Shown: positions 21,164 to 54,910 of the stretch, one piece after another
How the letters are laid out: every line of letters begins with the position of its first letter
How positions within the stretch are numbered: position 1 is the first letter of the stretch
IMG/VR virus record: IMGVR_UViG_3300014208_000003
Span: 32,001 to 96,000 of that record
Origin: a virus
Direction: 5' to 3' (one strand)
Length of the DNA stretch: 64,000 nucleotides
Made by a program: the position numbers and the translations under genes
The notes under the pieces: model-generated
The model's input: the letters and a program-made list of their open reading frames with translations, nothing else
The model's database searches: none
Told to the model about the DNA's origin: nothing

Positions 21164-22291
21164 ATGACCCTCTATTCTCAATCAACTACCGGAAAAATTC
21201 TTGTCTGGGAAATCGAAGTTCTTAAAAACCAATATAGAACAATTACAGGTCAAGAAGATGGTCAAAAAGTTATTTCGGAATGGACTACTTGTAACGGAAA
21301 GAATATTGGAAGAGCTAACGAAACAACTCCCGAAGAACAAGCTATACAAGAAGCAGAAGCACATATCAAAAAGAAATTAAAATCAGGTTATCATAAAGAT
21401 CGTGATAATGCATCTTCCGGAACATCTTATATGAAACCCATGCTTGCTAATAAATTTCCTGACCATAAACACAAAATTCAATATCCCGTAATGGTTGATA
21501 GAAAATATAATGGTGTAAGATGCATAACCACTATCAAAGGAATGTTTACAAGAAAAGGTGAAGAGATAATTACCGCACCACATATCCGAGAATGCCTTGA
21601 ACCAATTTTTGAAAAGTTTCCGGATATGGTTATCGATGGAGAATTATATAACCAGGAATATGCAGATCAACTAAACGAACTTGTGAAACTCGTCCGGAAA
21701 ACAAAACATTATACAGAACAAGATTTAATTAGAAGTAAAGAAATTGTTAAGTACTATGTTTACGATGGATATAACTTTCTTTCCGGAATAGTACCAGTAG
21801 CAGAACAAACAAATAATTTTAATAGAAGATGGTATTTGCAAGATCTTTTCAAAAACTATTCCGAAATGATTGTTCCTGTAGATAATCAAACCGCACAATC
21901 CGAAGAACATCTAATGGAAATATATGAGAGCTATTTGAAAGAAGGTATGGAAGGTGCTATCATAAGAAATCCTAATGCACCATATCATCACAAACGTTCT
22001 AATGATCTTCTTAAACTAAAACCTTTAAACGATAATGAATTTGAAATATTAGATATCAAAGAAGGTATAGGTAATTGGTCAGGAGCTGCTAAAATAGTTA
22101 CTCTGAAAATGGATTCCGGAAAAATATTTGATGGTTCTATTAAAGGATGTTTTGAGGATAATGTTCAAATCCTTATTAACAAAAATGATTGGATAGGTTC
22201 TAAAGTCACTGTTCGATATAATGGTTTAACAGGACTCGGAACACCTAATTTCGCACAATGGTCACCGAATAATTCTTTAAGAGCTGATTGA
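21164..22291 (+). CDS. ATP-dependent DNA ligase
   Basis: PMLA, KYNGVRC, DGELY, YVYD, EGAIIR, RSNDLLKLKP. Confidence 0.9.
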   Translation: MTLYSQSTTGKILVWEIEVLKNQYRTITGQEDGQKVISEWTTCNGKNIGRANETTPEEQAIQEAEAHIKKKLKSGYHKDRDNASSGTSYMKPMLANKFPDHKHKIQYPVMVDRKYNGVRCITTIKGMFTRKGEEIITAPHIRECLEPIFEKFPDMVIDGELYNQEYADQLNELVKLVRKTKHYTEQDLIRSKEIVKYYVYDGYNFLSGIVPVAEQTNNFNRRWYLQDLFKNYSEMIVPVDNQTAQSEEHLMEIYESYLKEGMEGAIIRNPNAPYHHKRSNDLLKLKPLNDNEFEILDIKEGIGNWSGAAKIVTLKMDSGKIFDGSIKGCFEDNVQILINKNDWIGSKVTVRYNGLTGLGTPNFAQWSPNNSLRAD

Positions 22292-22608
22292 TGTTGAAAC
22301 CTTCGAGGATTTATACTTCCAAAAATAGAATTTGTTATGATTTTATTTTCAAACAGGCTCCGAAAGTTTGTTTGAGATGTATTGTTATTGAAGGAAAACT
22401 GGTTAGTATCTTATGGGAGCGTCAAAATAGAATATCACGAAAAGGATGGTCAAAAAAGAATATTGAATAACTTCCGGAATGTGTCTTGGAAGTTCTAAAC
22501 CATCCTTTTCTTGATATAGATATTGCTAAAAGTGATTTCTCTAAAATTGAATATCGGAAAATGGTTTGGAATACGAAAGATACACAAATGTCGTTCTTAG
22601 TAAAATAA
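22288..22608 (+). pseudogene. PE...PF-family member with premature TAA
   Basis: In-frame TAA 22468-22470, followed by LPECVLEVLNHPFLDIDIAK. Confidence 0.65.
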
Positions 22609-25746: not shown

Positions 25747-26529
25747 ATGATAAAAGAATCAATTTTCGATCCTATTCAAAAAGAACTTTCAAAAGATGTC
25801 TGGAATAATAACCAACTAATTCCTGCTATCAAAACCCAAATCATAAACACTTTCTCAAACTTCCTGAATAAACACAATCTAAAACAAGTTATCAAATCAA
25901 TGAATGTTCTAGGATCAATAACAGGATATCAATACACACCAACTTCCGATATTGATGTGAATGTTGTCCTAGACCTTCCGGAAGAATCCCTGAAAGAACT
26001 ATATAAAGACTTGCCAAATAACATCTTAGCAACAAATACCAAACATCCTATCAACTATTATATTTCAACTATCTGGAAACCCGAATGGTCAAAAGAATCT
26101 AATGGCGTTTATAATATTCTAAAAAATGATTGGCAAAAACTTCCTGAACAACCAAAAACAAACCCAGACAATAATCTTAAACTAGTTTCAGAAATATCCA
26201 GATTCTTCACAACAGGTCTAGATTCAACAATATCCGAATTTTTCCGAGATCTAGACTTCTATCAAACAACTAATAACACAGAATATAAAAAACAAAAATT
26301 CCAAGAACTAAAAGAAGACTATATCTCAATCCAACTAGCACAACACATCCTCCACCAATTCAGAGGAGAAGCATTTCAAAATAATCCATTCCCAATAACT
26401 ATCAATATAACTTCTGCAAATGAATCTATTAACAACATGATTTATAAGTACATAGAGAAATTAGGATACCAAGACACTATCAACAGAATCTCCGGAATAG
26501 CAAAAGAACTCAATCTATCTGCCTCTTAA
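25747..26529 (+). CDS. Pol-beta-superfamily nucleotidyltransferase, late gene
   Basis: LGSITGYQYTPTSDIDVNV (GS...DxD); TCTAAATA 5 nt before ATG. Confidence 0.75.
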   Translation: MIKESIFDPIQKELSKDVWNNNQLIPAIKTQIINTFSNFLNKHNLKQVIKSMNVLGSITGYQYTPTSDIDVNVVLDLPEESLKELYKDLPNNILATNTKHPINYYISTIWKPEWSKESNGVYNILKNDWQKLPEQPKTNPDNNLKLVSEISRFFTTGLDSTISEFFRDLDFYQTTNNTEYKKQKFQELKEDYISIQLAQHILHQFRGEAFQNNPFPITINITSANESINNMIYKYIEKLGYQDTINRISGIAKELNLSAS

Positions 26530-26794
26530 ACCTTGCTAAATCAATTTCAAAAAATGGATTAGAAATATATTCCTGAACACTTTTTAAAATATCTTCCGGA
26601 ACATTCTCTATATATGTCCTATTTCGTTCATAACTATCCGCCAATAATGAATCACACTCTATAGTACAACTTTTAGCACTCATTAAATAACCCACATAAA
26701 TATACTCGATCACCACGGACTTTTCTGAATGTATTCTTTTCTCTATCACAAACTCAAAAATAAAATCCCAATTTAAAATATCAATTATTTTCAT
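26510..26794 (-). CDS. PE...PF-family paralogue (long spacer)
   Basis: VPEDILKSVQEYISNPFFEIDLAR. Confidence 0.75.
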   Translation of the reverse strand: MKIIDILNWDFIFEFVIEKRIHSEKSVVIEYIYVGYLMSAKSCTIECDSLLADSYERNRTYIENVPEDILKSVQEYISNPFFEIDLARFKRQID

Positions 26795-27081
26795 TTTGAC
26801 TGACTATATCTTTCCAAATCAATATCGAAAAATGGTGACTTAATATATTCTAAAAGCTTCTCCGGAACAGAAGACAGATTAATCTCATAAAAAGTCTGAT
26901 CCGCATAAAAATACCTTTCGCCATTATCATAACTAAATTTTATCTCATCTTCATAATTCCAATACTCTACATCAATCTTTTCCGAATAAGTGTACCAAAT
27001 ACAATAAGCACTTCTGCCATTTTCATAATTAGAATAAAATTTTCCCAATTCGCGTGTATTACTTTCCATACTTCCTCGCAA
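26791..27081 (-). CDS. PE...PF-family paralogue (short spacer)
   Basis: VPEKLLEYIKSPFFDIDLER. Confidence 0.75.
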   Translation of the reverse strand: MRGSMESNTRELGKFYSNYENGRSAYCIWYTYSEKIDVEYWNYEDEIKFSYDNGERYFYADQTFYEINLSSVPEKLLEYIKSPFFDIDLERYSQSK

Positions 27082-27310
27082 TATCTATCTCTAAGAAAGG
27101 TGACTCAACATATTTTCTAAGAACCTCCGGAACATCATCAACAGGAACTTCTTGAACAATATTGCCATTATAACAATGAGCTATATAAAAACCGTTAATA
27201 CTTATTAAATCCATTCCTCGCAACTCTATATCCAAACTATGATCATACGTATACCAGTAAACATTTATATCGTTCTTGTAATATCTCCCAATCTTTCGGT
27301 TCAAATCCAT
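27059..27310 (-). CDS. PE...PF-family paralogue (short)
   Basis: VPEVLRKYVESPFLEIDIAR. Confidence 0.75.
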   Translation of the reverse strand: MDLNRKIGRYYKNDINVYWYTYDHSLDIELRGMDLISINGFYIAHCYNGNIVQEVPVDDVPEVLRKYVESPFLEIDIARKYGK

Positions 27311-27597
27311 TATATTTCATTCTTTCTTAGCCACCGATCTTTCCAACCTATCTTCTGCTTATATCTTTCAAAATCTATCTCAAAGAAAGGATCATCAAGC
27401 TTCTTTTGAAACATTTTTCGAATCTCTTCCGGAACATCATCAATATCTACAGTCTTCTCAACAATAATAGTTTCTAACGATTCTGACAATACTCTAAATT
27501 CTAAACTATGACTAAGGAATATATAATTATAATTCTCTATCATATCTTCCTCTAAAACACATTCCCAACAATTGCCCCACTTTAAAAATCTCACCAT
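27310..27597 (-). CDS. PE...PF-family paralogue (long)
   Basis: VPEEIRKMFQKKLDDPFFEIDFER. Confidence 0.75.
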   Translation of the reverse strand: MVRFLKWGNCWECVLEEDMIENYNYIFLSHSLEFRVLSESLETIIVEKTVDIDDVPEEIRKMFQKKLDDPFFEIDFERYKQKIGWKDRWLRKNEI

Positions 27598-27615
27598 AAT
27601 TATTCTCCCAACACG

Positions 27616-27903
27616 TCAATACATTCCGATCTTTAATCTCTCCAATTCAATATCTAAAAATGGATCTAACAACTTATCAGAAAACACTTTAACAACATCT
27701 TCCTGAACAACATCAACCAAACATCTTTCTAACACCAATGACCTACAATTACACCTATCAAGAGTAACATCATTCAGATTATCTTTAAAACATCCCATAC
27801 TAATATAATCAACACGATCTTCAATACAAGACATCCATAATACTTTCTCATATATATTTTCCCACCTCAACACATCTCCAACTTTAATCATATGTTCTAT
27901 CAA
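27616..27903 (-). CDS. PE...PF-family paralogue (long)
   Basis: VQEDVVKVFSDKLLDPFLDIELER. Confidence 0.75.
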   Translation of the reverse strand: MIEHMIKVGDVLRWENIYEKVLWMSCIEDRVDYISMGCFKDNLNDVTLDRCNCRSLVLERCLVDVVQEDVVKVFSDKLLDPFLDIELERLKIGMY

Positions 27904-28195
27904 TCTCCCTTTTCAAATCAATCTCCAAAAAAGGATCAGAAAAGATATTCCTGAAATCTTCCGGAACTTCTGACTCATCAACCCGTACACAACATTTTTC
28001 AAATCCCTCATCTATTAAAAAGAATCCATACCTTCCAACATAATGAAAACATATATAGAATCCCGAAATCCCAACCCATAAATGTATATGAATATCCTTT
28101 AACCACCTGTAATATAAATCATCCTTCTTATACCAATTCATTTCCCACCCACAAACTAGCACCCTCACATTCCAACCTATTCCCAACAGTATCAA
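27884..28195 (-). CDS. PE...PF-family paralogue (short); start probably at MNWYKK (~28141)
   Basis: VPEDFRNIFSDPFLEIDLKR. Confidence 0.75.
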   Translation of the reverse strand: MILLGIGWNVRVLVCGWEMNWYKKDDLYYRWLKDIHIHLWVGISGFYICFHYVGRYGFFLIDEGFEKCCVRVDESEVPEDFRNIFSDPFLEIDLKREIDRTYD

Positions 28196-28508
28196 ATAAA
28201 ATCACACGACTATCGCAAACACCTATAGCACAATGCCAAACACTTCCAAAAGCATCATTACTAAAACACTCATCAACTATAACCTTCTTATCTCTAAAAC
28301 CATCCTCAAATCCAATATATTCAAAACTGCTTATAACATCCCTAACTCCATACTTATCCCTAATATAATCCCTCTCAACATCATTCCTAACAACCATTAA
28401 ATATCCCAACCCACTCTTCAATAACTCAATAATAGAACTTGTCTTACCAATATTACAAGGAGCTATCACCAAACCACCTTTTATAATCTCTTCCGTTATC
28501 CCATTCAT
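28128..28508 (-). CDS. Minimal P-loop/helicase-like protein inside the array
   Basis: IAPCNIGKTS Walker A-like, VIVDEC Walker B-like; no family motif. Confidence 0.5.
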   Translation of the reverse strand: MNGITEEIIKGGLVIAPCNIGKTSSIIELLKSGLGYLMVVRNDVERDYIRDKYGVRDVISSFEYIGFEDGFRDKKVIVDECFSNDAFGSVWHCAIGVCDSRVILFDTVGNRLECEGASLWVGNELV

Positions 28509-28759
28509 CCTAACCTCCTTTTAATATCTATCTCTAAGAAAGGTGATCTAAGATATTCCAAAAGCTCTTCCGGAACATCTTCAATATCCACACCCTCAAA
28601 ATAATCTGAAGGCTCCGGACAATTCCCCCTTCGATGATATATGTTAATTCTACCACCCTTCCAAAACTCTATATCAATATCTTCCGAATAGACTAACCAA
28701 ATACATTCCCAAACTGATAATAAATTGCTCCGGTAATATTTCCCAACTTCCCTCTTCAT
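28505..28759 (-). CDS. PE...PF-family paralogue (short)
   Basis: VPEELLEYLRSPFLEIDIKR. Confidence 0.75.
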   Translation of the reverse strand: MKREVGKYYRSNLLSVWECIWLVYSEDIDIEFWKGGRINIYHRRGNCPEPSDYFEGVDIEDVPEELLEYLRSPFLEIDIKRRLG

Positions 28760-29001
28760 TTATTCAAACACCTTCCTAAATCTATCTCAAAAAACGGTGA
28801 TTGCATATATTCCCAAACACGCTTCCAAATATCTTCCGGAATCTCTTTTGATTGAATCGACCAACCAAACGATGATAATTTATATATCCTCATCAAATCT
28901 TCTCTTTTTTCAACAATCAACACGTATTCCTCAAAATAAATATCATACCTATCATCATAAATTATTACACCTATAGCATTAACCAGCTTCTTATAATTCA
29001 T
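28756..29001 (-). CDS. PE...PF-family paralogue (long)
   Basis: IPEDIWKRVWEYMQSPFFEIDLGR. Confidence 0.75.
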   Translation of the reverse strand: MNYKKLVNAIGVIIYDDRYDIYFEEYVLIVEKREDLMRIYKLSSFGWSIQSKEIPEDIWKRVWEYMQSPFFEIDLGRCLNK

Positions 29002-29300
29002 GACAACTTCCTTTTCATTCTCTCCAACTCTATCTCAAAAAATGGATTAGACATATATTTCTGGAATGCTTTAACAACTTCTTCCGGAATAACAATAATT
29101 CTACGACTTTCTAATGTATTCAAAAACCGCATACCCATATCATCTAAACCATATAATTCAACAGACTTATCTTCGTAATGTCTTAAAACAATATAAGAAA
29201 CACATCTCCTACCATTATATTCCGCAACATCAGAAAGCCAAATCAACTTCTCTATACAAAATCCCCACTGTATCATATCTCCAACTTTAACTTTATGCAT
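28998..29300 (-). CDS. PE...PF-family paralogue (long)
   Basis: IPEEVVKAFQKYMSNPFFEIELER. Confidence 0.75.
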   Translation of the reverse strand: MHKVKVGDMIQWGFCIEKLIWLSDVAEYNGRRCVSYIVLRHYEDKSVELYGLDDMGMRFLNTLESRRIIVIPEEVVKAFQKYMSNPFFEIELERMKRKLS

Positions 29301-29578
29301 TACTTATCATCCCATCCTATCTTCCGCTTAAACCTCTCCAATTCAATATCAAAGAAAGGATCCAATAACCTATTCCGAACATTATTCAAAATAGATTCCG
29401 GAACAAAACTTATATTAATTAACTTCGTATCATAATGTTCACAAGCTATAATACTACTGTTTAAATCCATATCCCGATCCAAATAAATATATTCACTTTC
29501 TTCTACCCTAATTTCTCTTATTAACACAAACTCATAAAATACTCTACCCCATGACAATATCCCAATTATCCTTTCCAT
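29300..29578 (-). CDS. PE...PF-family paralogue (long)
   Basis: VPESILNNVRNRLLDPFFDIELER. Confidence 0.75.
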   Translation of the reverse strand: MERIIGILSWGRVFYEFVLIREIRVEESEYIYLDRDMDLNSSIIACEHYDTKLINISFVPESILNNVRNRLLDPFFDIELERFKRKIGWDDK

Positions 29579-29823
29579 CCCTGCCTATACCTTTCTACAT
29601 CAATATCCAAAAATGGCGACTCAACATATTCCCGAAGAACTACAGGAACATCATCACCAAATATCTCCTGAACAACAACATCATAATACGACGTAACATT
29701 ACCAAACACACAATTTATAATTATCTTATCAACACATTCCCACTTCTCTATATCTACATTCTTATCATACACATACCAATCACACACATTACCCCTATAA
29801 TACTTCCCGATCTCCCTTTTCAT
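29566..29823 (-). CDS. PE...PF-family paralogue (short), first gene of leftward array
   Basis: VPVVLREYVESPFLDIDVER; TATATT 7 nt upstream of ATG. Confidence 0.75.
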   Translation of the reverse strand: MKREIGKYYRGNVCDWYVYDKNVDIEKWECVDKIIINCVFGNVTSYYDVVVQEIFGDDVPVVLREYVESPFLDIDVERYRQGWKG

Positions 29824-30023
29824 AAATCATAATATAAAACAACAATATAATATCTACAAGCAAAATCGGCAAATATATAAAGAAATATTATCCGGAAGAA
29901 CTCATCGCTAATCATTATGTCCAAATCTTAACACATCGTTCACTTATTAACACTTTGTTCATTTCCCTTCTATAACTGTATTGTACACTTATTTACAGTT
30001 ATTTACACTTTCTTACAAAATAA

Positions 30024-30099
30024 TTCCGGAATACTTCAAGAATATCTCCGGAACATTATCTTGAACATTCCGGAATACTTCTAGAATATCTCCTGAACA
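30024..30099. repeat. 11-bp-phased TTCNNGAA array (two 32-bp direct repeats)
   Basis: Octamers at 30024, 30035, 30046, 30058, 30068, 30079, 30090. Confidence 0.8.
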
Positions 30100-30205
30100 A
30101 CAAAATTATATAAAGCAGATCCACATATTTCTTTCCGATCAAATCAAGTATAATCATTCAGGAAATATTTTTAATAATGTTCCGGAATAATTTCTAAATA
30201 CTTTC

Positions 30206-30694
30206 ATGAACAATATAAAATTAAATTCTACAACCTATATGCATCCGGAATTATTCAAGAAGTATTCCAAATTACTTATCCAATCAAATCGTTTAGGAAT
30301 TTACTTTATAGTCACACAGGTAGCAAGAACTCCTGAATATCAAAAGGCATTATATTATCAGGGTAGACTTCCGGCTGATACTGTTAATGAGATGAGGTTA
30401 AAAGTAAATCTTGCACCTATTACTTTGAAACAGAATCGAATAGTAACATCAACATTAAAGTCAAAACATTTATTCAAAACATTTCCGGAATATGGTTCAA
30501 AACAATTTTCGGAAGCATTTGATGTTGCGATTATAAAACCAAATTCTAAAATAATTCTTTGGGATAAACCTGATATCAACAATAATAACAAGAATGATTA
30601 TGAGGAGCTTGGAGTTATAGGAGAGTCATTAGGATTATATTGGGGTGGCCGTTTTAAAAATATTGATATGCCACATTATGAAATTAGATTGTAG
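30206..30694 (+). CDS. M15-family peptidoglycan endopeptidase (endolysin)
   Basis: RT...QKALY.QGR, SKH, AFDV, WGG.F...DMPHYE; late promoter. Confidence 0.85.
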   Translation: MNNIKLNSTTYMHPELFKKYSKLLIQSNRLGIYFIVTQVARTPEYQKALYYQGRLPADTVNEMRLKVNLAPITLKQNRIVTSTLKSKHLFKTFPEYGSKQFSEAFDVAIIKPNSKIILWDKPDINNNNKNDYEELGVIGESLGLYWGGRFKNIDMPHYEIRL

Positions 30695-30980
30695 TCTTCT
30701 TAGGAATAAATAATTTTTCAATGTTAGCGATATATCTTTCAACATCAATATCAAAAAACGGATCATCAAGTTTCTTCCGGAAGATGTTTTGAATATCTTC
30801 TGGTGGACGGTTCGTTGTGCTTCTACCTTCTATATATGTTAACGAATGCCAGACTAGTTCCGGTTCAATCTTTTCCCAAGCCAATGTCAATAATATTACT
30901 AGTGATGAATGATTTATATTACTTGGTACGGTTTTAATAACAATATAAGATTCACGGGCAGATCTATATATTTTAAGCAT
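30684..30980 (-). CDS. PE...PF-family paralogue (long)
   Basis: PPEDIQNIFRKKLDDPFFDIDVER. Confidence 0.75.
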   Translation of the reverse strand: MLKIYRSARESYIVIKTVPSNINHSSLVILLTLAWEKIEPELVWHSLTYIEGRSTTNRPPEDIQNIFRKKLDDPFFDIDVERYIANIEKLFIPKKTTI

Positions 30981-30984
30981 TCTT

Positions 30985-31236
30985 TTAAAACCTTTGTCTA
31001 ATATATCTTTCTAATTCTATTTCCGAAAAAGGATCTTGAATCTTTTTCCGAACCATCTCTTGAACATTCTCCGGAACATCTTTAACATCAACATCAATAT
31101 CTAAACATCTTAACGAATCCTTATACCACCAATCTAATCGAAATTGTTTATATTGAATCAGGTATCCGAAACAAACATCTTTATAATAATCGCCAACCTT
31201 ATAAAAATAATCATTCCAATAAACATTAAACCACAT
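30985..31236 (-). CDS. PE...PF-family paralogue (long)
   Basis: VPENVQEMVRKKIQDPFSEIELER. Confidence 0.75.
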   Translation of the reverse strand: MWFNVYWNDYFYKVGDYYKDVCFGYLIQYKQFRLDWWYKDSLRCLDIDVDVKDVPENVQEMVRKKIQDPFSEIELERYIRQRF

Positions 31237-31513
31237 TCTTTAACCACCTTATATATTCAATCTCTGTAAAAGGATCATCAAACTTATTCCGGAATGCTTT
31301 TACAATATCTTCCGGAACATCTGCTTCTGAAATTGGTTTGTAATGTTTATCTATATCACGAATAAAACAAATACCTTCATCAAATATCGAATTATATAAA
31401 CAAATTCTTCCGGAAGATGCCACGTAAAAATCTACTGGTAATAAAATATCATCCGACCAATTTTCATGGTAAATCTGCATACTGGAATATAATAGATAGA
31501 AGGTCTGGAACAA
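31226..31513 (-). CDS. PE...PF-family paralogue (long)
   Basis: VPEDIVKAFRNKFDDPFTEIEYIR. Confidence 0.7.
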   Translation of the reverse strand: MFQTFYLLYSSMQIYHENWSDDILLPVDFYVASSGRICLYNSIFDEGICFIRDIDKHYKPISEADVPEDIVKAFRNKFDDPFTEIEYIRWLKNVV

Positions 31514-31578
31514 AAGGAATTATTGCGCGTACTTTCATGTTATCTAAATACTATTGAACATTAATAACAGGAGGTAGT

Positions 31579-32295
31579 ATGAGAGAAATTGAATTGAGTA
31601 ATGGTATGGTAACTAAAGTAGACGATGAAGATTTTATTTATCTATCACAGTTTAACTTCCATTTTAAGAAACAAACCGATCCAAGATACAAATATGGTTA
31701 TGCTTATAGAGTGATTTGGAATAAGGAAACTAAAACTAAAAAAGCATTGGATATACACAGAGAAATTATGAATGCTAAAAAAGGAGAATGTGTTGATCAT
31801 ATTAATCATGACACATTAGATAACAGAAAAGAAAATTTAAGAATATGTACTCATCAACAAAATATGTGCAATAAAGCTAAACTATCAAACACAAGTAATT
31901 TATATAAAGGTGTTTCAATAATGAGTAGAAATAAATTAAGACCCTATGTTGCAATGTGTGGCGGAGATTTTGTTGGTTGCTTTAAAACAGAATTAGAAGC
32001 AGCAATGGCATATAACGGAAGAGCAAAAGAACTATATGGGGAATTTGCTGTAGTGAATGATTGTGGTTTTATATTTAATTATGTTCCGGATAAAATTAAA
32101 AATAAGACTTCGAAATATATTGGTGTAAGAAGATTCCGAAATAAAGATAAAAAAGAAATGGGATGGACTGCTTATTATAACTCAAAATATATCGGATACT
32201 TTAAAACAGAAGATGATGCAAAACAAGCTAGAGATAAATATGTAGAAAATTATAACAAACCATCGCCTGAATATTATATTGGAAACGGTGTTTAA
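31579..32295 (+). mobile_element. HNH homing endonuclease with AP2-like domains
   Basis: VDHINHDTLDNRKENLR; YKGV...GCFKTELEAAMAYN; YIGV...GYFKTEDDA; late promoter at 31543. Confidence 0.85.
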
Positions 32296-32912
32296 TAACT
32301 ATTCCGAATCATCTTTAAAATAAATCTTCCGGATCATTATTAGAAATATTTCCGGAAGATGCTTTTCAAATAATCAATCTCTAATCATTCTATCAACACA
32401 CTAATAGTAAACATATATTATGCGCAATGTAAATTCCTTATTCCGGAATATGGTATGGAAGGATTATCGGAAATGGGTTCGGAATACTTCTAGAATGATT
32501 CCGGAAAATGGTATCTGAATACTTTCCGGAAGAACTTATCGGAAGAGGGATCCGGAATATTGCTTTATAGGGTATAGCGGTTTTTTATACAGGAGGCGGT
32601 TTTGGGGTGTCTAAAGGGGGTGCTCAGATTCGGAATTCTTTCAAAACATTCTTGCGGAAATATTGGAGGAATGATTAGATGAATGTTCCGGAAATCTCAC
32701 ATAAAATAATTCTAGAAGTATTCCGGAAGATATTTGTGTTTTTTATTCCGGAAGATTATATTGGTATGAATTTTTGGATTTAATTTTTCGGGAAGTTTTT
32801 TGGCTATAGAACTTTTTGTGATTGGTATGAAAATTGCTATGATATTTAATTCCGGAAGAATGTTCAAGAAATAATTTTGATTTAGTATTGTGATATGTTA
32901 TTTTAGCGTGGT
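32296..32912. other. Non-coding GC-skew switch region; candidate replication origin or genome end/packaging site
   Basis: + strand flips from C-rich to G-rich near 32.45 kb; 8 perfect TTCCGGAA; G-run island 32570-32624. Confidence 0.5.
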
Positions 32913-33179
32913 ATGTATAAAATATTTATTACGAGTGAAGAGAATAGATATCCTGTTATAGTATTATTGCGTGATGGTTGTTTGATGACATGTTATGGTA
33001 CTAAGGTTGAAATATGGATAATACAATGGTCGGATAATTTGAGAAATGAATTACAACGAGTTTATAAAGAAGTTGATATAGAAGATGTTCCGGAGATTTA
33101 CAGGGAATTGGTTCGGAACAGATTATCAGATCCGTTTTTGGATATAGAGACTAGAAGGTTAAAAGTTAAAGATGAATAA
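32913..33179 (+). CDS. PE...PF-family paralogue (long), first gene of rightward array
   Basis: VPEIYRELVRNRLSDPFLDIETRR. Confidence 0.75.
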   Translation: MYKIFITSEENRYPVIVLLRDGCLMTCYGTKVEIWIIQWSDNLRNELQRVYKEVDIEDVPEIYRELVRNRLSDPFLDIETRRLKVKDE

Positions 33180-33450
33180 ATTTAATATTGAGAATGTTAT
33201 ATGTTTCAGGGCGGGTAATGTATATGCGTGTTTTGTTGGGAAGATAATGTGTAAATATAATCTGAAAAAATATATAGCGGTTGAAATGTACAGAAAAATG
33301 ATTGGGATAGATTGGTTTTATAGGATGCAAAAAAATTCGGATGAGAGTATTACCATTCAAGAAGTTCCAGAGAATCTTCAGGAATATATTTTATCACCAT
33401 TTTTTGAGATAGATGTTCTGAGGCAATATCCGGAAATTATTTGGTTATGA
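33172..33450 (+). CDS. PE...PF-family paralogue (short)
   Basis: VPENLQEYILSPFFEIDVLR. Confidence 0.75.
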   Translation: MNKFNIENVICFRAGNVYACFVGKIMCKYNLKKYIAVEMYRKMIGIDWFYRMQKNSDESITIQEVPENLQEYILSPFFEIDVLRQYPEIIWL

Positions 33451-33713
33451 GATATTTTACATGGTATAATCATAAAGATCTTGTAGGATATTTGTGTTAT
33501 GCTTATGATGATAGGAAAATCTATTTACGTGCTAGTGATGAGACAGAGGATATTGAATTTACTAGTTATTATATTCCGGAGTGGGTGAAACAAGGTAAAT
33601 TAATAGAAGTTTCTGGTGATATTGTTCCGGAAGTTCTTAAGGAGAGATTTCGGAATAGGTTTGCTGATCCTTTTTTAGAGATTGATTATGAAAGGTTCCT
33701 GAATAGTTTATGA
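33441..33713 (+). CDS. PE...PF-family paralogue (long)
   Basis: VPEVLKERFRNRFADPFLEIDYER. Confidence 0.75.
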   Translation: MVMRYFTWYNHKDLVGYLCYAYDDRKIYLRASDETEDIEFTSYYIPEWVKQGKLIEVSGDIVPEVLKERFRNRFADPFLEIDYERFLNSL

Positions 33714-33997
33714 GGATATATTTAACAGAACATCCGAATTATTTTACTGTGTTTATTATTTTATTGGAGAAGGGTGATTATTTTGTTTATGTTGGATTTA
33801 AGGAAGATGAATCTGAATCCGGAAAGATTAAATGTGAAGAACTGTTTAAATCAACGACAGAAAGTTTGAAGAGAAAATATCGAGAAATTGGTGTAGATGA
33901 GATTCCGGGAGATTGGAGGGAAATTGTTCAAGGCTTTCTTTCGGATCCTTTTTTAGAGATAGATGTTCGGAGGCTATTGGAAAAGAAATTTGGATGA
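33710..33997 (+). CDS. PE...PF-family paralogue (long)
   Basis: IPGDWREIVQGFLSDPFLEIDVRR. Confidence 0.75.
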   Translation: MRIYLTEHPNYFTVFIILLEKGDYFVYVGFKEDESESGKIKCEELFKSTTESLKRKYREIGVDEIPGDWREIVQGFLSDPFLEIDVRRLLEKKFG

Positions 33998-34099
33998 CTT
34001 CGGGAATTGATTGGGATAGGGTTAATAGGCATGTGGGTTGAAGGAATATGTTCAGGAGTGTTTCGGGATAGGTTATCAAATATAAGAAATTTGGGATAG

Positions 34100-34390
34100 G
34101 TGTTTATGGATATTGAAAAGTTTAAGTGTTATCAGCAATCGGTTGGTTTTTATAATATTGTTTTGGGAGAGCAATCGAAATATAGGGTTAAGAAAATTGC
34201 TATTACATTTATTAAAAAATCGGAGAGGTGTAATTCTGATATTTTAATAGATAGTTGGCATTTCGAAGATTCTATTTCTGGCACCGTTATTAAGTTTGAG
34301 GAATTGCCCGATGAGTTATTGAGATATATTCGCGATCCGTTCTTTGAGATAGAAGTAGCGAGAAAGTTTCCGGAGATTGTTTGGTTATGA
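34100..34390 (+). CDS. PE...PF-family paralogue (short)
   Basis: LPDELLRYIRDPFFEIEVAR. Confidence 0.75.
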   Translation: MFMDIEKFKCYQQSVGFYNIVLGEQSKYRVKKIAITFIKKSERCNSDILIDSWHFEDSISGTVIKFEELPDELLRYIRDPFFEIEVARKFPEIVWL

Positions 34391-34680
34391 AAATAGTAAA
34401 AGATAATATTGGTGTTGGTGATGTGTATAAAATGTGGTTGTTCCGGAGTGGTTCAAAAATTATTTATTATAGGTTTAATTTGAATTGGACAGGAATATCA
34501 TATTATTTATGGACAGGTGGTATTATTTATGAACACGATGTAACTTATAATTGTAATGTTGTTCCGGAGAATTTGAGGAAATTGTGTTTGAATATTCTTT
34601 CGGATCCTTTTTTAGAAATTGATTTGAGAAGGAAATATCATAAGTTGTTATCTGGTAATGATGTAGAGTGGTTTATATGA
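34381..34680 (+). CDS. PE...PF-family paralogue (long)
   Basis: VPENLRKLCLNILSDPFLEIDLRR. Confidence 0.75.
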   Translation: MVMKIVKDNIGVGDVYKMWLFRSGSKIIYYRFNLNWTGISYYLWTGGIIYEHDVTYNCNVVPENLRKLCLNILSDPFLEIDLRRKYHKLLSGNDVEWFI

Positions 34681-34934
34681 AATATTTAAAATCTATTAAA
34701 GACTGTAACATGGATTATATTGTTGCTATATCTTTGAGTGAAAAACGTTATTCTAAAAGATATTATTTTGTTTTCTTTTGGGACGATAATGAATTTGGTG
34801 ATTTTCATGAAGGTATAAATTTAGATGATTACAAAGAGATTGATTATAATGCGCTTCCGGAAGATTGCAGAAAGTTTATAGAGTCACCGTTTTTTGATAT
34901 TGATGTTGAAAAGGCACGTGGGAAATTATTATGA
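34668..34934 (+). CDS. PE...PF-family paralogue (short)
   Basis: LPEDCRKFIESPFFDIDVEK. Confidence 0.75.
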   Translation: MVYMKYLKSIKDCNMDYIVAISLSEKRYSKRYYFVFFWDDNEFGDFHEGINLDDYKEIDYNALPEDCRKFIESPFFDIDVEKARGKLL

Positions 34935-35245
34935 GGATCTTCCGGAATGAGGAGATATATTCATTGGTTTTAATTTGGAACGATAGAATTCCCGGTGTGG
35001 ATATAAAAACATTGGAAATTATAAGATGGGGTTCTGGGCATTTTGAATTAATGGACGATAGATGGGACTTGGATAGAGAAATTGGTTTAAAAGATATTCC
35101 GGAAGATGTTCGAAAAGAGTTTAGAGAATTTCTTTCGGATCCTTTTTTGGAGATAGATATTCTTAGAAATGATGAATATATAATTAATGGTGTTGATAAG
35201 GCATTGTTTTTTAAGAATTTGCAGGAATATAGAGAAAAGTTATGA
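34931..35245 (+). CDS. PE...PF-family paralogue (long)
   Basis: IPEDVRKEFREFLSDPFLEIDILR. Confidence 0.75.
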   Translation: MRIFRNEEIYSLVLIWNDRIPGVDIKTLEIIRWGSGHFELMDDRWDLDREIGLKDIPEDVRKEFREFLSDPFLEIDILRNDEYIINGVDKALFFKNLQEYREKL

Positions 35246-35525
35246 TTGGGAAATATTATAATTTGGGTAATGATTGTTGTTATTTAGCACGACTTGTTGA
35301 AATAGGTAGTTCTTCTAAAGTTGGATTGTATGTAAGTATTTCTGGAAATTGGATATCTATTTACAAAGAAGATAGTATTCGTTGGTTTATGGTAGAAATG
35401 TTTTCGATGGATGGTATGCTACTAAAGATGTTCCAAAAGATATTCAAGAAGCATTCCGGAAGAAGCTTGATGATCCGTTCTTTGAGATAGATTTTGAAAG
35501 ATGGAAGAGATCAAAAGGACTGTAG
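35242..35525 (+). pseudogene. Frameshifted PE...PF-family paralogue (long)
   Basis: -1 frame open from 35376 encodes DVPKDIQEAFRKKLDDPFFEIDFERW; probable missing T at ~35386-35388. Confidence 0.7.
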
Positions 35526-35762
35526 AAATTTTTGATAATCTAATTCCAGAAAAGGATCACGGAATTTTTCTTCAAAGGCTTTTCTGAAATGTTCCGGAAC
35601 ATCTTTTGCTAATACTTTTTTAACAATGTGAGGTGTGTTAGAAATTACGGGCATAGATAATGTAACATGTATTTTCTCACGACCAAAAATATCACGACGA
35701 CCTTTAACCAATATTCCTTTTTTCTGAACGTAATAATAAAGATCAGATTTAAAATATTTCAT
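35511..35762 (-). CDS. PE...PF-family paralogue (long)
   Basis: VPEHFRKAFEEKFRDPFLELDYQK. Confidence 0.75.
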   Translation of the reverse strand: MKYFKSDLYYYVQKKGILVKGRRDIFGREKIHVTLSMPVISNTPHIVKKVLAKDVPEHFRKAFEEKFRDPFLELDYQKFLQSF

Positions 35763-36058
35763 TGTTGGTAATTTTTGGTAAGACTGTAATTGATATTAAT
35801 ATTTGTTGCTACCGGTTTTTGGATATAAGAAAAATACAGTCTCAAAGTAGTAGATTTATTGTTCTCTTTCCATCTTTCATAATCCAACATAGCAAACGTT
35901 TTCATATAATCGGTTAAAGGTATTTTTTGAACATTATATTTTTTATGAATGTTTGCACAATAGTTACCATTAAAACCTTCCCAATAGTCTTCGGATTCAT
36001 CAACTATCAACCATTCTTTATTATCGCTGGTTTTAATAGCGCATCCAATACATATCAT
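35759..36058 (-). CDS. Hypothetical protein
   Basis: Coupled ORF; at most a distant family relative (FAMLDYERWK). Confidence 0.5.
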   Translation of the reverse strand: MICIGCAIKTSDNKEWLIVDESEDYWEGFNGNYCANIHKKYNVQKIPLTDYMKTFAMLDYERWKENNKSTTLRLYFSYIQKPVATNININYSLTKNYQQ

Positions 36059-36992
36059 CGTAGCACTCCATTATAAAATTATCAAACCATTTTGTATCAA
36101 TATTTTCCGGAAGATTGCTTTTAGAAACTAGGTCACTTATTCCGGAAATTATTTCTTCTAATTTTTCGGCAATACCATCGTTCAAATAATGGTATTGTCC
36201 AAGTTTTATTTTGAGTAATTCCGGAGCCTGTTTAAGAGGGTATTTTAAATCACCCGTCTCTAGTATTTCTTTTATTTGATACCCGGCTCTGAATGCATGT
36301 GACACGGCTTTCCAATCGATCCCGGAATTATCTCTTGCTTGTTTTGCTCTGGTTCCATATCCTTCATAAATTCTGTGTAAAATGTTCAGGGCATATTCTA
36401 CGGTAACTGTTTCGGTAATCATTTTTCCGCAACACTCATAATGACGAAGTTCTGGTTGTTTTGGGTTAATAATATTTTTAGTTGGATAAGAGAATTCGTC
36501 TACCGGTAATTTTTCGAATATGTCTGAAATCTTCCGGAATGATTCGAATTGTTCAAGTGTCTTTATAACATTTTCTATGGAAGCTACTCTGGAACCTTTA
36601 ACACCATACTTAGCTGTTTGTGTTTTAATATAACCAAGATAACCTCTCATATTTTTGGAATAGAATTTTGAACGGTTCCTGTGAATTTCTTTCCATATAT
36701 CCGAAGAAGTTATCCAAAGATTTTCCGGAGAATGCACCATATCAATTACGCCCATTTCTCCTTGTATAGCCAATTGAAAGAAATATTGTAGTGAATATAT
36801 TTCTTCATCAACATCATCTTTAGTATTCTTTTCGTTTTGTTTTCCGGTAGTGCTATGAATAGATTTTGGGATTTTATTCAGGAAGCATTGTTCTTTTGTC
36901 GGGAGCATTACGCCTTTAAAATCGTTATCTGAATCTGGCGAATTTGTGCCATACAAGTGACTACCGAAAATTGTTTTAAATATTGTTTTCAT
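36033..36992 (-). CDS. Nucleotidyltransferase (RlaP/YcgL-like, Pol-beta superfamily)
   Basis: FGSHLYGTNSPDSDNDFKGV, DWKAVSHAFR; start MKTIFK preferred. Confidence 0.8.
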   Translation of the reverse strand: MKTIFKTIFGSHLYGTNSPDSDNDFKGVMLPTKEQCFLNKIPKSIHSTTGKQNEKNTKDDVDEEIYSLQYFFQLAIQGEMGVIDMVHSPENLWITSSDIWKEIHRNRSKFYSKNMRGYLGYIKTQTAKYGVKGSRVASIENVIKTLEQFESFRKISDIFEKLPVDEFSYPTKNIINPKQPELRHYECCGKMITETVTVEYALNILHRIYEGYGTRAKQARDNSGIDWKAVSHAFRAGYQIKEILETGDLKYPLKQAPELLKIKLGQYHYLNDGIAEKLEEIISGISDLVSKSNLPENIDTKWFDNFIMECYDDMYWMRY

Positions 36993-37278
36993 GACTATTA
37001 TCCCTAAATTCTCTGTGTGTTGTTCCGAAATCTTTTTTAACATCTATTTCAAAAAACGGATCATTAAATTTTTCTAGTATATCTTTTGGTGGAATTACTT
37101 CGGGAAATATTTCTAATGATTCTGTTTTCAATGTACAGTACCACCAAAGAATATAAATCAAGTCTATGAAAAGCATTTTAATACCTTCCCATCCAATTTC
37201 TGTTTTTACAATAGGATAGAAATAAGTATCTGGTGGCGTCATAAAAGAAGTATGTTTGAAGGCGTGGTAAAATTTCAT
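36976..37278 (-). CDS. PE...PF-family paralogue (short)
   Basis: PPKDILEKFNDPFFEIDVKK. Confidence 0.7.
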   Translation of the reverse strand: MKFYHAFKHTSFMTPPDTYFYPIVKTEIGWEGIKMLFIDLIYILWWYCTLKTESLEIFPEVIPPKDILEKFNDPFFEIDVKKDFGTTHREFRDNSHENNI

Positions 37279-37287
37279 AAAAAAAGA

Positions 37288-37318
37288 AAAACCCTCCTAC
37301 TATACTTCAGAGGGTTTT
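37288..37318 (-). terminator. Intrinsic terminator after AAA gene
   Basis: AAAACCCTC...GAGGGTTTT hairpin followed by T tract on minus strand. Confidence 0.5.
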
Positions 37319-37332
37319 AACAAGAAAAGGTT

Positions 37333-38439
37333 TTATGATTTACGTTTGTTTCCGGATTGTACTTCCATAATTCTCCGTTTAATTTCTGGATTACATAGAA
37401 GTAGTTTTTCCGGCCATGTCTTTTTATTTTCTCTGTGTCTCATGAATTGTTCAATCAGTTCTGCCATAATTTCTCCGGGAACGTCTTCAACATAATTCAA
37501 AAGGTTATTGGATATTTTACACGCAACTTCCGAGAACTGTCCACCAAGCTTATCAAAATGTGATTCGTTCTCTTCAAACCAATTACACATTTCACGATTA
37601 ACAACAGCAAGATCCTGAATATTCATTTCCTTAATATCTTTTTTAACTTTCTGATAATTAAGTAAAAGAGTACCTACATGTATTTGTTTATTCTCTCTCC
37701 AAAATTGCATGAAGGTAGCTGTTGCGGCGGCTCCTACGATACTGAACACAACATTTGATATAGTGTGCTCATTCAAATCGGAATTGTTATTAAGAACATC
37801 AGAAACTCTTTTCCACGATCTTCTTGAAGGATATACGGAACCATTAATAGCTTCTTTTCTGGAAGGTGGGTCGAGCAATGAAGTATTTTTGGAAAGGAAT
37901 CCAATTACTTTATTATGAACCTTTCTCGATAACGCCCAATCTACCCACTCATCAAAAGTAGGACGGAAATCAACTTTGTTAAATCTATCCAATAAAGCAG
38001 GATCCAAATCTTCAACCTGATAAGAACCATTATTACTAGGATTAACAGCAGCAACTATCCGAGTATTTTTTGGTAGATCTTTTCCTGCTAATCTTCTGTT
38101 CAAGCATAGATCCATAATGACTTGATGTATTTCTGGTCTGGCACGATTTAACTCATCAAGGAACAGTAGAATCTTTTCATCTGTATCTTTTGGCCACCAG
38201 AGCGGAGGAGCATAATCAGTATATACAATTCCGTTCTTCTCGACTTTATTTGGCAAACCTATTATATCACCAGCATCAGCCATTTGTCCTAGAAAAAGAA
38301 CTATGATCCGATAACCCTTTTTTGAAAAATATTCCGAAACAACTTCTGATTTTCCTATCCCGTGAATGCCTTCTAACATGATTGGTTGGTTTATCGGGGT
38401 GGCATCAATAATTTCACATGTTTCTTTTGCACTAGCCAT
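37333..38439 (-). CDS. MoxR-like AAA+ ATPase
   Basis: GIHGIGKS, GDIIGLP, LFLDELNRA, AAVNP, LDPALLDRF, PSRRSW. Confidence 0.85.
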   Translation of the reverse strand: MASAKETCEIIDATPINQPIMLEGIHGIGKSEVVSEYFSKKGYRIIVLFLGQMADAGDIIGLPNKVEKNGIVYTDYAPPLWWPKDTDEKILLFLDELNRARPEIHQVIMDLCLNRRLAGKDLPKNTRIVAAVNPSNNGSYQVEDLDPALLDRFNKVDFRPTFDEWVDWALSRKVHNKVIGFLSKNTSLLDPPSRKEAINGSVYPSRRSWKRVSDVLNNNSDLNEHTISNVVFSIVGAAATATFMQFWRENKQIHVGTLLLNYQKVKKDIKEMNIQDLAVVNREMCNWFEENESHFDKLGGQFSEVACKISNNLLNYVEDVPGEIMAELIEQFMRHRENKKTWPEKLLLCNPEIKRRIMEVQSGNKRKS

Positions 38440-42434: not shown

Positions 42435-43384
42435 AGGAATAGAAAGTTTAAAATTGTTGCTTCTTGTTTCTTATATTCTTCCTGAGCTAACTCTTGATAT
42501 GTTTTGACCCATTTTAATCCATCCAGAGCGTCCATATCGGCATTAGGATACATACTATCAATATTTAGAAAGGAGAAATTATGATCTCTTTTTTCGATAC
42601 GTTCTGCTGCATAGATAGCTGTAGTTGTAGCCTGTGATCGTGCCATACCAATAACTTTAACAGCATCTTTTATATTTCCTGATTTGACTGCTTTTTTATA
42701 ACCAACGTCTTTATTATAGAATCCGGTTCCTATGTTTAGCATTTTTATTTTATCATCCGGATAGTTATTACAAATAGATGCATAAGCTTCGATTACGGGA
42801 TTATTTGAATCTCCTTCACCACCATCACCATAAACTATTTGGTATTTATTATCGTTTATATTTCCGAAGTAGTAAGATGCCGCGAATGTTTTGGCTATTG
42901 CGTTTGTTACATATTCGTCTTTATAATTATCGTTCCATGATTTTATGAATTCGTTTTTACATTTGATCCAGTTTTTATTCACAGTAGATAGCATTAAATG
43001 TTTTCCGGTCGTTTCGTATATTTCGGACATTTTCATATTAGGGTGTTTAGAATATTTCAGAATAACATTTAGAATCGGATCTCTTTTATATTTTGGCATG
43101 TGTAGGAAAGAAGGCTTCCACCAAGGGCAATCAGGAATAAAATACTTATCACCCTCAAGATATAAGTTTCTGATTTGTTCAAGAGGCATTCCGATTAAAA
43201 GGCTTGCACCAATAATTCCTCCGGTTGATGTTCCAAAAAATATATCAACAAAGTCATATATAGTTTTTCCGTTACCAAATCTTTTCATTATTGATTGTGA
43301 TAGTTGATACAAAATTTCGATAGTATAAGTTCCTGCCAATCCTCCACCGGGTAACACTAAAGCTAATTTCGAATCGTTTATCAT
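42431..43384 (-). CDS. Patatin-like phospholipase
   Basis: LVLPGGGLAG, GTSTGGI, DGG, LNIGTG. Confidence 0.85.
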   Translation of the reverse strand: MINDSKLALVLPGGGLAGTYTIEILYQLSQSIMKRFGNGKTIYDFVDIFFGTSTGGIIGASLLIGMPLEQIRNLYLEGDKYFIPDCPWWKPSFLHMPKYKRDPILNVILKYSKHPNMKMSEIYETTGKHLMLSTVNKNWIKCKNEFIKSWNDNYKDEYVTNAIAKTFAASYYFGNINDNKYQIVYGDGGEGDSNNPVIEAYASICNNYPDDKIKMLNIGTGFYNKDVGYKKAVKSGNIKDAVKVIGMARSQATTTAIYAAERIEKRDHNFSFLNIDSMYPNADMDALDGLKWVKTYQELAQEEYKKQEATILNFLFL

Positions 43385-54619: not shown

Positions 54620-54910
54620 TTAAATTTCCATACCGTGTGATTCTTGTTCCCGAAATCTTTTTAAATCTATCTCAAAGAATGGTTCCGCAATTTTATCGTT
54701 AACAATTTTTCTAATATCTTCCGGAACATTCCTACAAATTAAATTATAATCTCTAAATCCTTTTATTAGTTTCATTTCTCCATTATATTTTTCATATCTT
54801 ATAAAACAAGATACAATCGAATGAATTTTACTTTTACATTCGCCAACATATCTATAAAACGTTCCACCTAAATCGGCTTCGTCAATAAATTCCCAATATT
54901 CTTCAACCAT
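54620..54910 (-). CDS. PE...PF-family paralogue (long), orphan copy
   Basis: VPEDIRKIVNDKIAEPFFEIDLKR. Confidence 0.75.
   Translation of the reverse strand: MVEEYWEFIDEADLGGTFYRYVGECKSKIHSIVSCFIRYEKYNGEMKLIKGFRDYNLICRNVPEDIRKIVNDKIAEPFFEIDLKRFREQESHGMEI

Follow-up and report, generated by a model that had tools for sequence, protein, structure and literature searches.

What are the proteins that crowd one region of an uncultured phage genome as a long run of small, similar genes, and what might they do for the virus? The run lies at 26.5-37.3 kb of the 64,000-nucleotide stretch analysed here (the window, bases 32001-96000 of IMG/VR record IMGVR_UViG_3300014208_000003, which is a complete 158,262-bp virus genome with direct terminal repeats). 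Each gene encodes a protein that joins a divergent N-terminal part (the head) to a shared C-terminal module (the tag). An earlier note on this DNA had counted 27 copies, 25 of them in the run and two dispersed, and all were recovered by a six-frame scan for the DPF-type motif (26 matches within the window) together with a hidden Markov model (HMM) of the C-terminal module. Run against 742 open reading frames (ORFs), the tag HMM matched 38 ORFs of the genome with E-values from 3e-9 to 3e-20, the 11 copies outside the window lying at genome 110.4, 130.2-132.6, 138.7-139.2 and 143.5 kb. The next-best score (5e-4) fell to an ORF of 291 amino acids (aa) at genome 109500-110366, which was not counted, as by eye it resembles an RNase H/FEN-like protein whose match to the PE-helix is probably due to chance. 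The 38 genes account for ~14% of the ~266 ORFs, or roughly every seventh gene, and for 6-7% of the DNA. Of the 38 copies, 36 have an open frame; within the window 25 of 27 are intact, one of the others having an in-frame TAA and the other a frameshift. The descriptive part of the analysis is secure: the family is undescribed, narrowly distributed, strongly expanded and under selection.

The virus carries a T4-like gene set, identified with PHROG, of portal, large terminase, tail sheath, baseplate wedge, family-B DNA polymerase, gp46-like SbcC, DnaB-type helicase and ribonucleotide reductase genes. Because its DNA polymerase is at most ~31% identical to that of any cultured phage (cyanomyoviruses give the best matches), we place it on a deep uncultured T4-like branch. 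The genome has a G+C content of ~31%. An attempt to infer the host from the NAPRTase gene gave a single match at 39% and was uninformative.

The tag spans ~40 residues and comprises a short strand, a first helix entered through [VIL]PE, a DPF[FL]E[IL][DE] turn and a second helix. In the alignment of 25 window members the P and F of DPF are invariant, and the P of VPE and the I are near-invariant. When the heads are anchored on VPE, the conserved block begins ~6 residues before it, with hydrophobic residues at -3 and -5 and acidic ones at -1 and -2, and reads as the short strand; further upstream the heads have no common register. The tag exists in two forms, a long one and one shorter by 4-5 residues. 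The head, of ~58 residues, is aromatic-rich (Trp and Tyr are enriched) and its secondary structure is predicted to be beta; heads measure 58 +/- 7 aa here, and those of members from elsewhere 59 +/- 9 aa. The N-termini of the family members show no conserved position beyond the Met. The proteins are for the most part mildly acidic, and transmembrane-like segments are all but absent from the family. AlphaFold2 models of two members with unrelated heads both contained the helix-DPF turn-helix at a predicted local distance difference test score (pLDDT) of 82-92, and N-terminal beta-strands at low confidence (pLDDT 34-60, ~50 for the heads). In these models the tag would be an amphipathic two-helix hairpin that needs something to pack against. 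A homodimer prediction for one member, from a 61-row alignment, scored 0.01, which speaks neither for nor against a dimer.

The pairing of a constant C-terminal tag with very divergent heads, which the earlier note had described, was borne out by the alignment and by comparison of the heads. When the heads were compared by themselves with BLAST and phmmer, no cluster exceeded seven members and 39 of the 82 heads fell into none; profiles of the head clusters, compared by hhalign, gave probabilities below 1%. At the level of sequence, the heads are variable beyond detectable homology between subfamilies. Tags are nevertheless more alike within head clusters (55% identity) than between them (46%), a difference reached by none of 2000 permutations, which shows that head and tag are inherited together. 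For the same reason we rejected free head-tag shuffling at the TCCGGA palindrome (see below) as the main process. One head cluster mixes long and short tags, so that head and tag may on rare occasions be exchanged. Along the left array the head types follow one another in a way that suggests old block duplications, and the family grew by old duplications of whole genes and of blocks. Pairwise synonymous differences in the tag (pS) are near saturation, at 0.56 for long tags and 0.69 for short tags, against a nonsynonymous value (pN) of 0.33; what maintains the tag is thus purifying selection at the protein level and not recent gene conversion, and the duplications must be of long standing. Comparisons between near-identical contigs of relatives (L021 with L022, and L026-L028) yielded 2-9 differences only, too few for a pN/pS estimate.

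The motif corresponds to no named family, as the earlier note had supposed: searches of Pfam, PHROGs, NCBIfam and PDB sequences gave no match to the family. Ten window members matched no family above cut-off, and when 61 members were scanned singly against Pfam-A, PHROG and NCBIfam, no family was matched by more than five of them and none above cut-off. Three weak candidates were examined and set aside. The CD1375 family (NF040910, tiny Firmicutes phage proteins) was weakly matched by five of the 61 members; the best score in this genome was 21.2 bits, below the threshold of 22.5, over positions 15-32 only of the 34-position model, and the resemblance was judged to be chance. The AbrB/MazE/SpoVT family (PF04014) was indicated for one member by Atlas features (0.83), but a second member did not repeat this, and the family had zero hits among the 61 members at E up to 10. 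Weak POTRA_1 hits in two members (E 0.013 and 0.057) were judged to be chance.

An exhaustive HMMER pass over 1.84 billion representative proteins returned 66 hits, 34 from this genome and 32 external clusters, all of the latter unannotated and from ENA, JGI or Logan metagenome contigs; a word-based homologue search added one further cluster. All 66 hits are 42-122 aa long, and the tag occurs on no larger or other type of protein. GenBank phages gave neither a DNA nor a protein match, an IMG/VR scan with a back-translated DPFFEIDL pattern found nothing outside this record (six matches, all chance and to a heptapeptide only), and the motif was not found in any paper in the literature.

The contigs of relatives that we fetched (L021/L022 and L026-L029) are pieces of T4-like phages with 30-32% G+C, and they carry family arrays as well: at least eight members in a row on L027, four after a gp46-like gene and two after an HD gene on L022, and two between the AAA_5 and RlaP genes on L029. 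Their core genes are 65-84% identical to those of this phage (RlaP 69-76%, AAA_5 65-67%, patatin 76%, Mre11-like 76%). For family genes in syntenic slots, in contrast, similarity to this phage is confined to the tag, which indicates that turnover of the heads, or of the set of genes, is much more rapid than that of the remaining genome. The order AAA_5 ATPase, family member(s), RlaP nucleotidyltransferase (window 36976-38439, L026 and L029) is common to three lineages, with wholly different heads. Lineage-specific expansions of small genes in large phages are a known phenomenon; what is undescribed here is this particular family with its module, the large share that it takes of a 158-kb genome, and the way in which it is entangled with a palindrome found throughout the clade.

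To time the expression of the arrays we have the distribution of one upstream motif. CTAAATA, the late promoter of cyanomyoviruses, shows the highest enrichment (23-fold) of all 7-mers in upstream regions, being present in 18 of these, and is probably the late promoter of this phage too. In the window it occurs on the + strand at 680, 4059, 4145, 5180, 15095, 17330, 23730, 25735, 30194 and 31544, and on the - strand at 42562, 44405, 45338, 46069 and 61373. Within 26-38 kb it stands ahead of only three genes, the nucleotidyltransferase-like gene at 25747, an M15 peptidase gene and an HNH gene. None lies on the sense strand before the family arrays, from which we infer non-late expression. Terminator-like sites number 3 in 13 kb, against 6.3 expected.

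The reading that we favour, and to which we give an even chance of being right, is that the members share one small fold, with a constant hairpin core and a hypervariable face, and are made from non-late, translationally coupled operons as host-directed binders. This uncultured, deep-branching T4-like myovirus would then have a lineage-specific multigene family of small cytoplasmic proteins, each a single compact alpha/beta unit in which the C-terminal ~40 residues would form the constant core and the preceding ~58 aromatic-rich, predicted beta residues the hypervariable face. The proteins would be produced early or mid-infection, before the late genes, and may act as diversified binders or inhibitors of host targets, probably defence-related ones. 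The head would set specificity, and the hairpin would be a shared scaffold and possibly also a shared contact surface. A DNA-level constraint is superimposed on this, the V-P-E codons forming the palindrome TTCCGGAA, which is over-represented throughout the phage clade. We prefer one fold to a mobile tag because head length is constrained, the tag is found on no other type of protein, head and tag are co-inherited, and AlphaFold2 places strands ahead of the helix-turn-helix in two unrelated members. A complete change of heads between phages that still share 65-84% identity in their core genes is the pattern expected of an arms race with host targets. If an arms race is indeed the cause, the family would offer at least 38 natural variants on one scaffold. 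Large phages have many orphan small genes, and regions of this kind are the source of most counter-defence proteins discovered so far. Were the family merely a set of structural paralogues, it would still be a new one for databases.

Several points weigh against this proposal. The argument for one fold is drawn from size, composition and co-inheritance, and the head model is poor (pLDDT ~50). With the heads modelled only at that level, Foldseek yielded no match in PDB or BFVD at E <= 0.001; a wide VIA-align search gave polo-box domains (beta-sheet plus helix) as its best match, at a Z of 4.5 that lies within noise; and the structure neighbours in the ESM Atlas were generic beta-meanders with a template modelling (TM) score of ~0.5. 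As for timing, what points to early or mid-infection expression is only the missing late motif: sigma-70-like sites were no commoner than in shuffled sequence, and no convincing early promoter was found. The counter-defence role is suggested by analogy with other fast-evolving phage families, and the strict acidic conservation in FEID could equally mark a shared binding surface.

The closest setting for such genes is the hyperplastic regions of T4-type phages, in which small early ORFs are shuffled by promoter early stem-loop (PeSL) cassettes (PMC2839356, PMC4122927), and for the fast-evolving small proteins of these plastic regions host-directed action is the usual reading (PMC4122927). Here too, blocks of small, variable, non-essential-looking genes lie between core genes and differ in content between close relatives. 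The genes of hyperplastic regions, however, are mostly unrelated and each bounded by PeSL, whereas those described here are overlapping paralogues of one family: the arrays lack a promoter and stem-loop for each ORF, neighbours overlap by 1-23 nt, and neither promoters nor terminators are in excess.

The alternative that survives best, though we judge it unlikely, is that the family is a library of adaptors or effectors, in which the hairpin docks on a common partner (a protease, an AAA+ machine like the adjoining MoxR-type AAA_5 ATPase, or a capsid component) and the heads bring host targets. With synonymous sites saturated, P...DPF and the acidic E-I-D positions still hardly vary, a stronger conservation than is usual for a purely structural core, and it is the very strict conservation of the exposed-type residues F, E and D that keeps the docking model alive. 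In three phage lineages, moreover, a member has kept its place between the AAA_5 ATPase and RlaP genes, and the heads are unrelated in sequence. The family as such has a parallel in the lineage-specific multigene families of large DNA viruses, for example the ankyrin proteins of poxviruses with their C-terminal PRANC/F-box-like module. These families likewise combine many paralogues, a variable target-binding part and a constant C-terminal module with rapid turnover between related viruses. They have, however, no sequence or structural relation to the phage family, and in poxviruses the variable part consists of a repeat domain and the constant module is a proven docking site for a ubiquitin ligase of the host, whereas docking by the phage hairpin would be a conjecture. 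Against docking stand the 1.84 billion proteins among which the tag was found on no other type, the constrained size of the heads, and their co-inheritance with the tags. The earlier note had made the tag a separable docking handle, and for this we obtained no support, given the same three observations (heads of 58 +/- 7 aa) and the amphipathic character of the predicted hairpin. It had also allowed that the tag might simply be the structural core of one fold shared with the heads; this fits the data at least as well as a docking handle does. If the tag is a true docking module after all, 38 heads would be plugged into one phage or host machine, as a programmable adaptor library for host takeover or counter-defence, and TTCCGGAA, which lies where the constant block starts and also in the control regions on its flanks, would tie regulation or diversification to a clade-specific DNA signal; this fuller version is a rather long shot.

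Next we considered that the proteins are virion cargo, the constant module being a C-terminal loading signal by which they are packed in the head and injected with the DNA. The internal proteins of T-even phages form a diverse anti-restriction set with nothing in common but a capsid targeting sequence (PMC3012670). The architecture is analogous, in that IPI, IPII, IPIII and Alt also present a short constant module on diverse small proteins; counter-defence is the role of IPI* and a putative one for the present family. The capsid targeting sequence, however, is an N-terminal leader of ~10 residues, whereas the constant part here is C-terminal and ~40 residues long, as a predicted folded hairpin. 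That leader is cleaved off by the prohead protease, and the internal-protein genes are expressed for head assembly. In the present family the N-termini are not conserved and no leader of this kind is seen, the arrays lack the CTAAATA late motif and so are not late by promoter inference, and the copies lie among replication and repair genes, not near the head module. We therefore regard a cargo role as improbable.

Nor do the genes behave as decaying or selfish filler, duplicated ORFs of no present use that drift apart. Two copies are broken, the heads cannot be aligned, and the family is limited to one clade, all of which speaks for filler. Against this, in a genome of 31% G+C, 36 copies retain an open frame of 80-105 codons, and their start and stop codons overlap; tag pN is well below pS; related phages, moreover, keep arrays, with members in the same slots, even where their heads cannot be aligned with those of this phage. 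The earlier note had named neutral evolution as one way in which its proposal would fail, and with a tag pN of 0.33 against a pS of 0.56-0.69 and 36 of 38 frames open, the genes are not neutral. Filler is thus very improbable.

The remaining alternative concerns the palindrome. TCCGGA occurs 301 times in the genome against 11.7 expected from base composition (26-fold), 160 of the copies being TTCCGGAA, and 301 of the 435 CCGG sites lie inside TCCGGA. Every codon phase is represented, 154 sites being read as x-Pro-Glu/Asp, 88 as Ser-Gly and 36 as x-Arg-Asn/Lys. In most family copies V-P-E is encoded by GTTCCGGAA, with CCG as the Pro codon in 24 copies; for comparison, the proline of DPF is encoded by CCT, CCA and CCG in 18, 9 and 8 copies. 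The same VPE codon choice is made in 16 of 20 copies from relatives, whose contigs are equally rich in TCCGGA (18-33 sites on contigs of 4.4-9.5 kb). This codon bias and the genome-wide excess of TCCGGA indicate that a constraint on the nucleic acid accounts in part for the 'PE' half of the motif, and that conservation elsewhere in the tag is at the protein level. A genome-wide DNA signal such as TTCCGGAA can masquerade as a protein motif, which calls for caution in any motif-based reading. That the functional element is the DNA or RNA itself (TTCCGGAA plus its flanks) and not the protein is nonetheless barely credible: the GTTCCGGAA codons, their CCG bias at VPE against DPF, their recurrence in 16 of 20 relatives' copies and the 26-fold excess in all phases speak for it, but outside those nine bases the tag preserves its amino acids although its synonymous sites are near saturation, only two of the 38 frames are broken, and it would explain the VPE tripeptide at most.

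The two densest TCCGGA clusters of the genome are non-coding and flank the arrays. The spacer at 29824-30205, upstream of an 11-member sub-array, holds five exact TCCGGA and 3.3 copies of an iteron-like 22-bp tandem unit, TCCGGAATACTTCTAGAATATC, at 30025-30097; similar units lie at 32430-32560. The other, at 32296-32912 before the + strand array, is the densest, with seven exact and 17 loose sites. The two spacers could be a control region or an origin. A third, smaller cluster lies at genome 112.1-112.5 kb, partly inside the gene at 112261-113238, which is one of two N6/N4 DNA methyltransferase genes (the other is at genome 110808-111611; both are on the - strand). No C5 methyltransferase gene was found in the genome. 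One relative's array has no TCCGGA cluster upstream, and no paper in the literature links TCCGGA to such phages. The idea that TTCCGGAA is a MotA-box-like element 12 nt before a -10 hexamer was dropped, as the excess was weak among 46 intergenic half-sites and absent inside genes.

Members were placed from the ORF list and the tag HMM unless another basis is stated; coordinates are those of the window. The earlier note had described tightly coupled operons pointing away from the non-coding region at 32.3-32.9 kb. The coupling holds, most junctions in the arrays being overlaps of 1-23 nt with few gaps, but not all copies point away: those at 35511-35762 and 36976-37278, both on the - strand, are directed towards that region. 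In the left arm, on the - strand, members lie at 26510-26794 (94 aa, long tag), 26791-27081 (GKYY-type head, short tag), 27059-27310 (83 aa, GKYY-type head, short tag), 27310-27597 (95 aa, one of the two modelled with AlphaFold2), 27616-27903 (VQE replacing VPE) and 27884-28195 (short tag). Within this array, a non-family ORF of 126 aa (28128-28508, -) has, by eye, a Walker A-like AxxxxGKT and a Walker B-like VIVDE, and no Pfam match. It is followed by members at 28505-28759 (84 aa, GKYY-type head, short tag), 28756-29001 (81 aa), 28998-29300 (100 aa, the other AlphaFold2-modelled member), 29300-29578 (92 aa) and 29566-29823 (85 aa), the last being the first gene of the 11-member sub-array.

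Two + strand genes, each with its own CTAAATA, interrupt the left arm. One encodes the M15 peptidase (30206-30694) and the other an HNH_3 endonuclease (31579-32295); the latter lies between the divergent arrays and looks like an inserted homing-endonuclease gene. Between the two genes stand three - strand members, at 30684-30980 (98 aa), 30985-31236 (83 aa) and 31226-31513 (84-95 aa, depending on the choice of start).

The + strand array opens at 32913-33179 (88 aa) and continues with members at 33172-33450 (92 aa, short tag), 33441-33713 (88-90 aa), 33710-33997 (95 aa), 34100-34390 (94-96 aa, short tag), 34381-34680 (97-99 aa), 34668-34934 (85-88 aa, short tag) and 34931-35245 (104 aa, with a C-terminal extension). 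It ends in the frameshifted copy (35242-35525, +), whose head is in the frame of 35242 and whose tag is in the frame opening at 35376 after a TAG. Of the two - strand copies beyond it, the one at 35511-35762 (83 aa) is basic (isoelectric point 9.7) and lies downstream of the RlaP operon, and the one at 36976-37278 is the member between the genes for the AAA_5 ATPase (37333-38439) and RlaP (36033-37043), a slot also filled in two other phage lineages.

The two dispersed copies of the window differ in state. The disrupted one (22291-22608, +; tag HMM E 3.4e-9) has its in-frame TAA at 22468-22470, directly before LPE, and its ATG overlaps the stop codon of a DNA ligase gene. The other, at 54620-54910 (-; motif scan and tag HMM), encodes 96 aa.

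Outside the window, a complete member is fused in frame to an HD-domain protein (assigned by eye; 67% identical to a relative's PF01966 gene), giving a protein of 264 aa (genome 131542-132336, -; L005:1827-2618). On L022, from a relative, the two are distinct genes that overlap by 8 nt, the HD gene encoding 174 aa. Many family genes of the window are preceded by a weak Shine-Dalgarno-like sequence or by none, which may bear on the host. Finally, family genes have a skew of G over C of +0.48 at fourfold-degenerate sites; the values for the other genes are +0.05 (those of more than 100 aa) and +0.19 (small ones), and this skew of the family genes accounts for the strong strand skew of the region at 26-36 kb.

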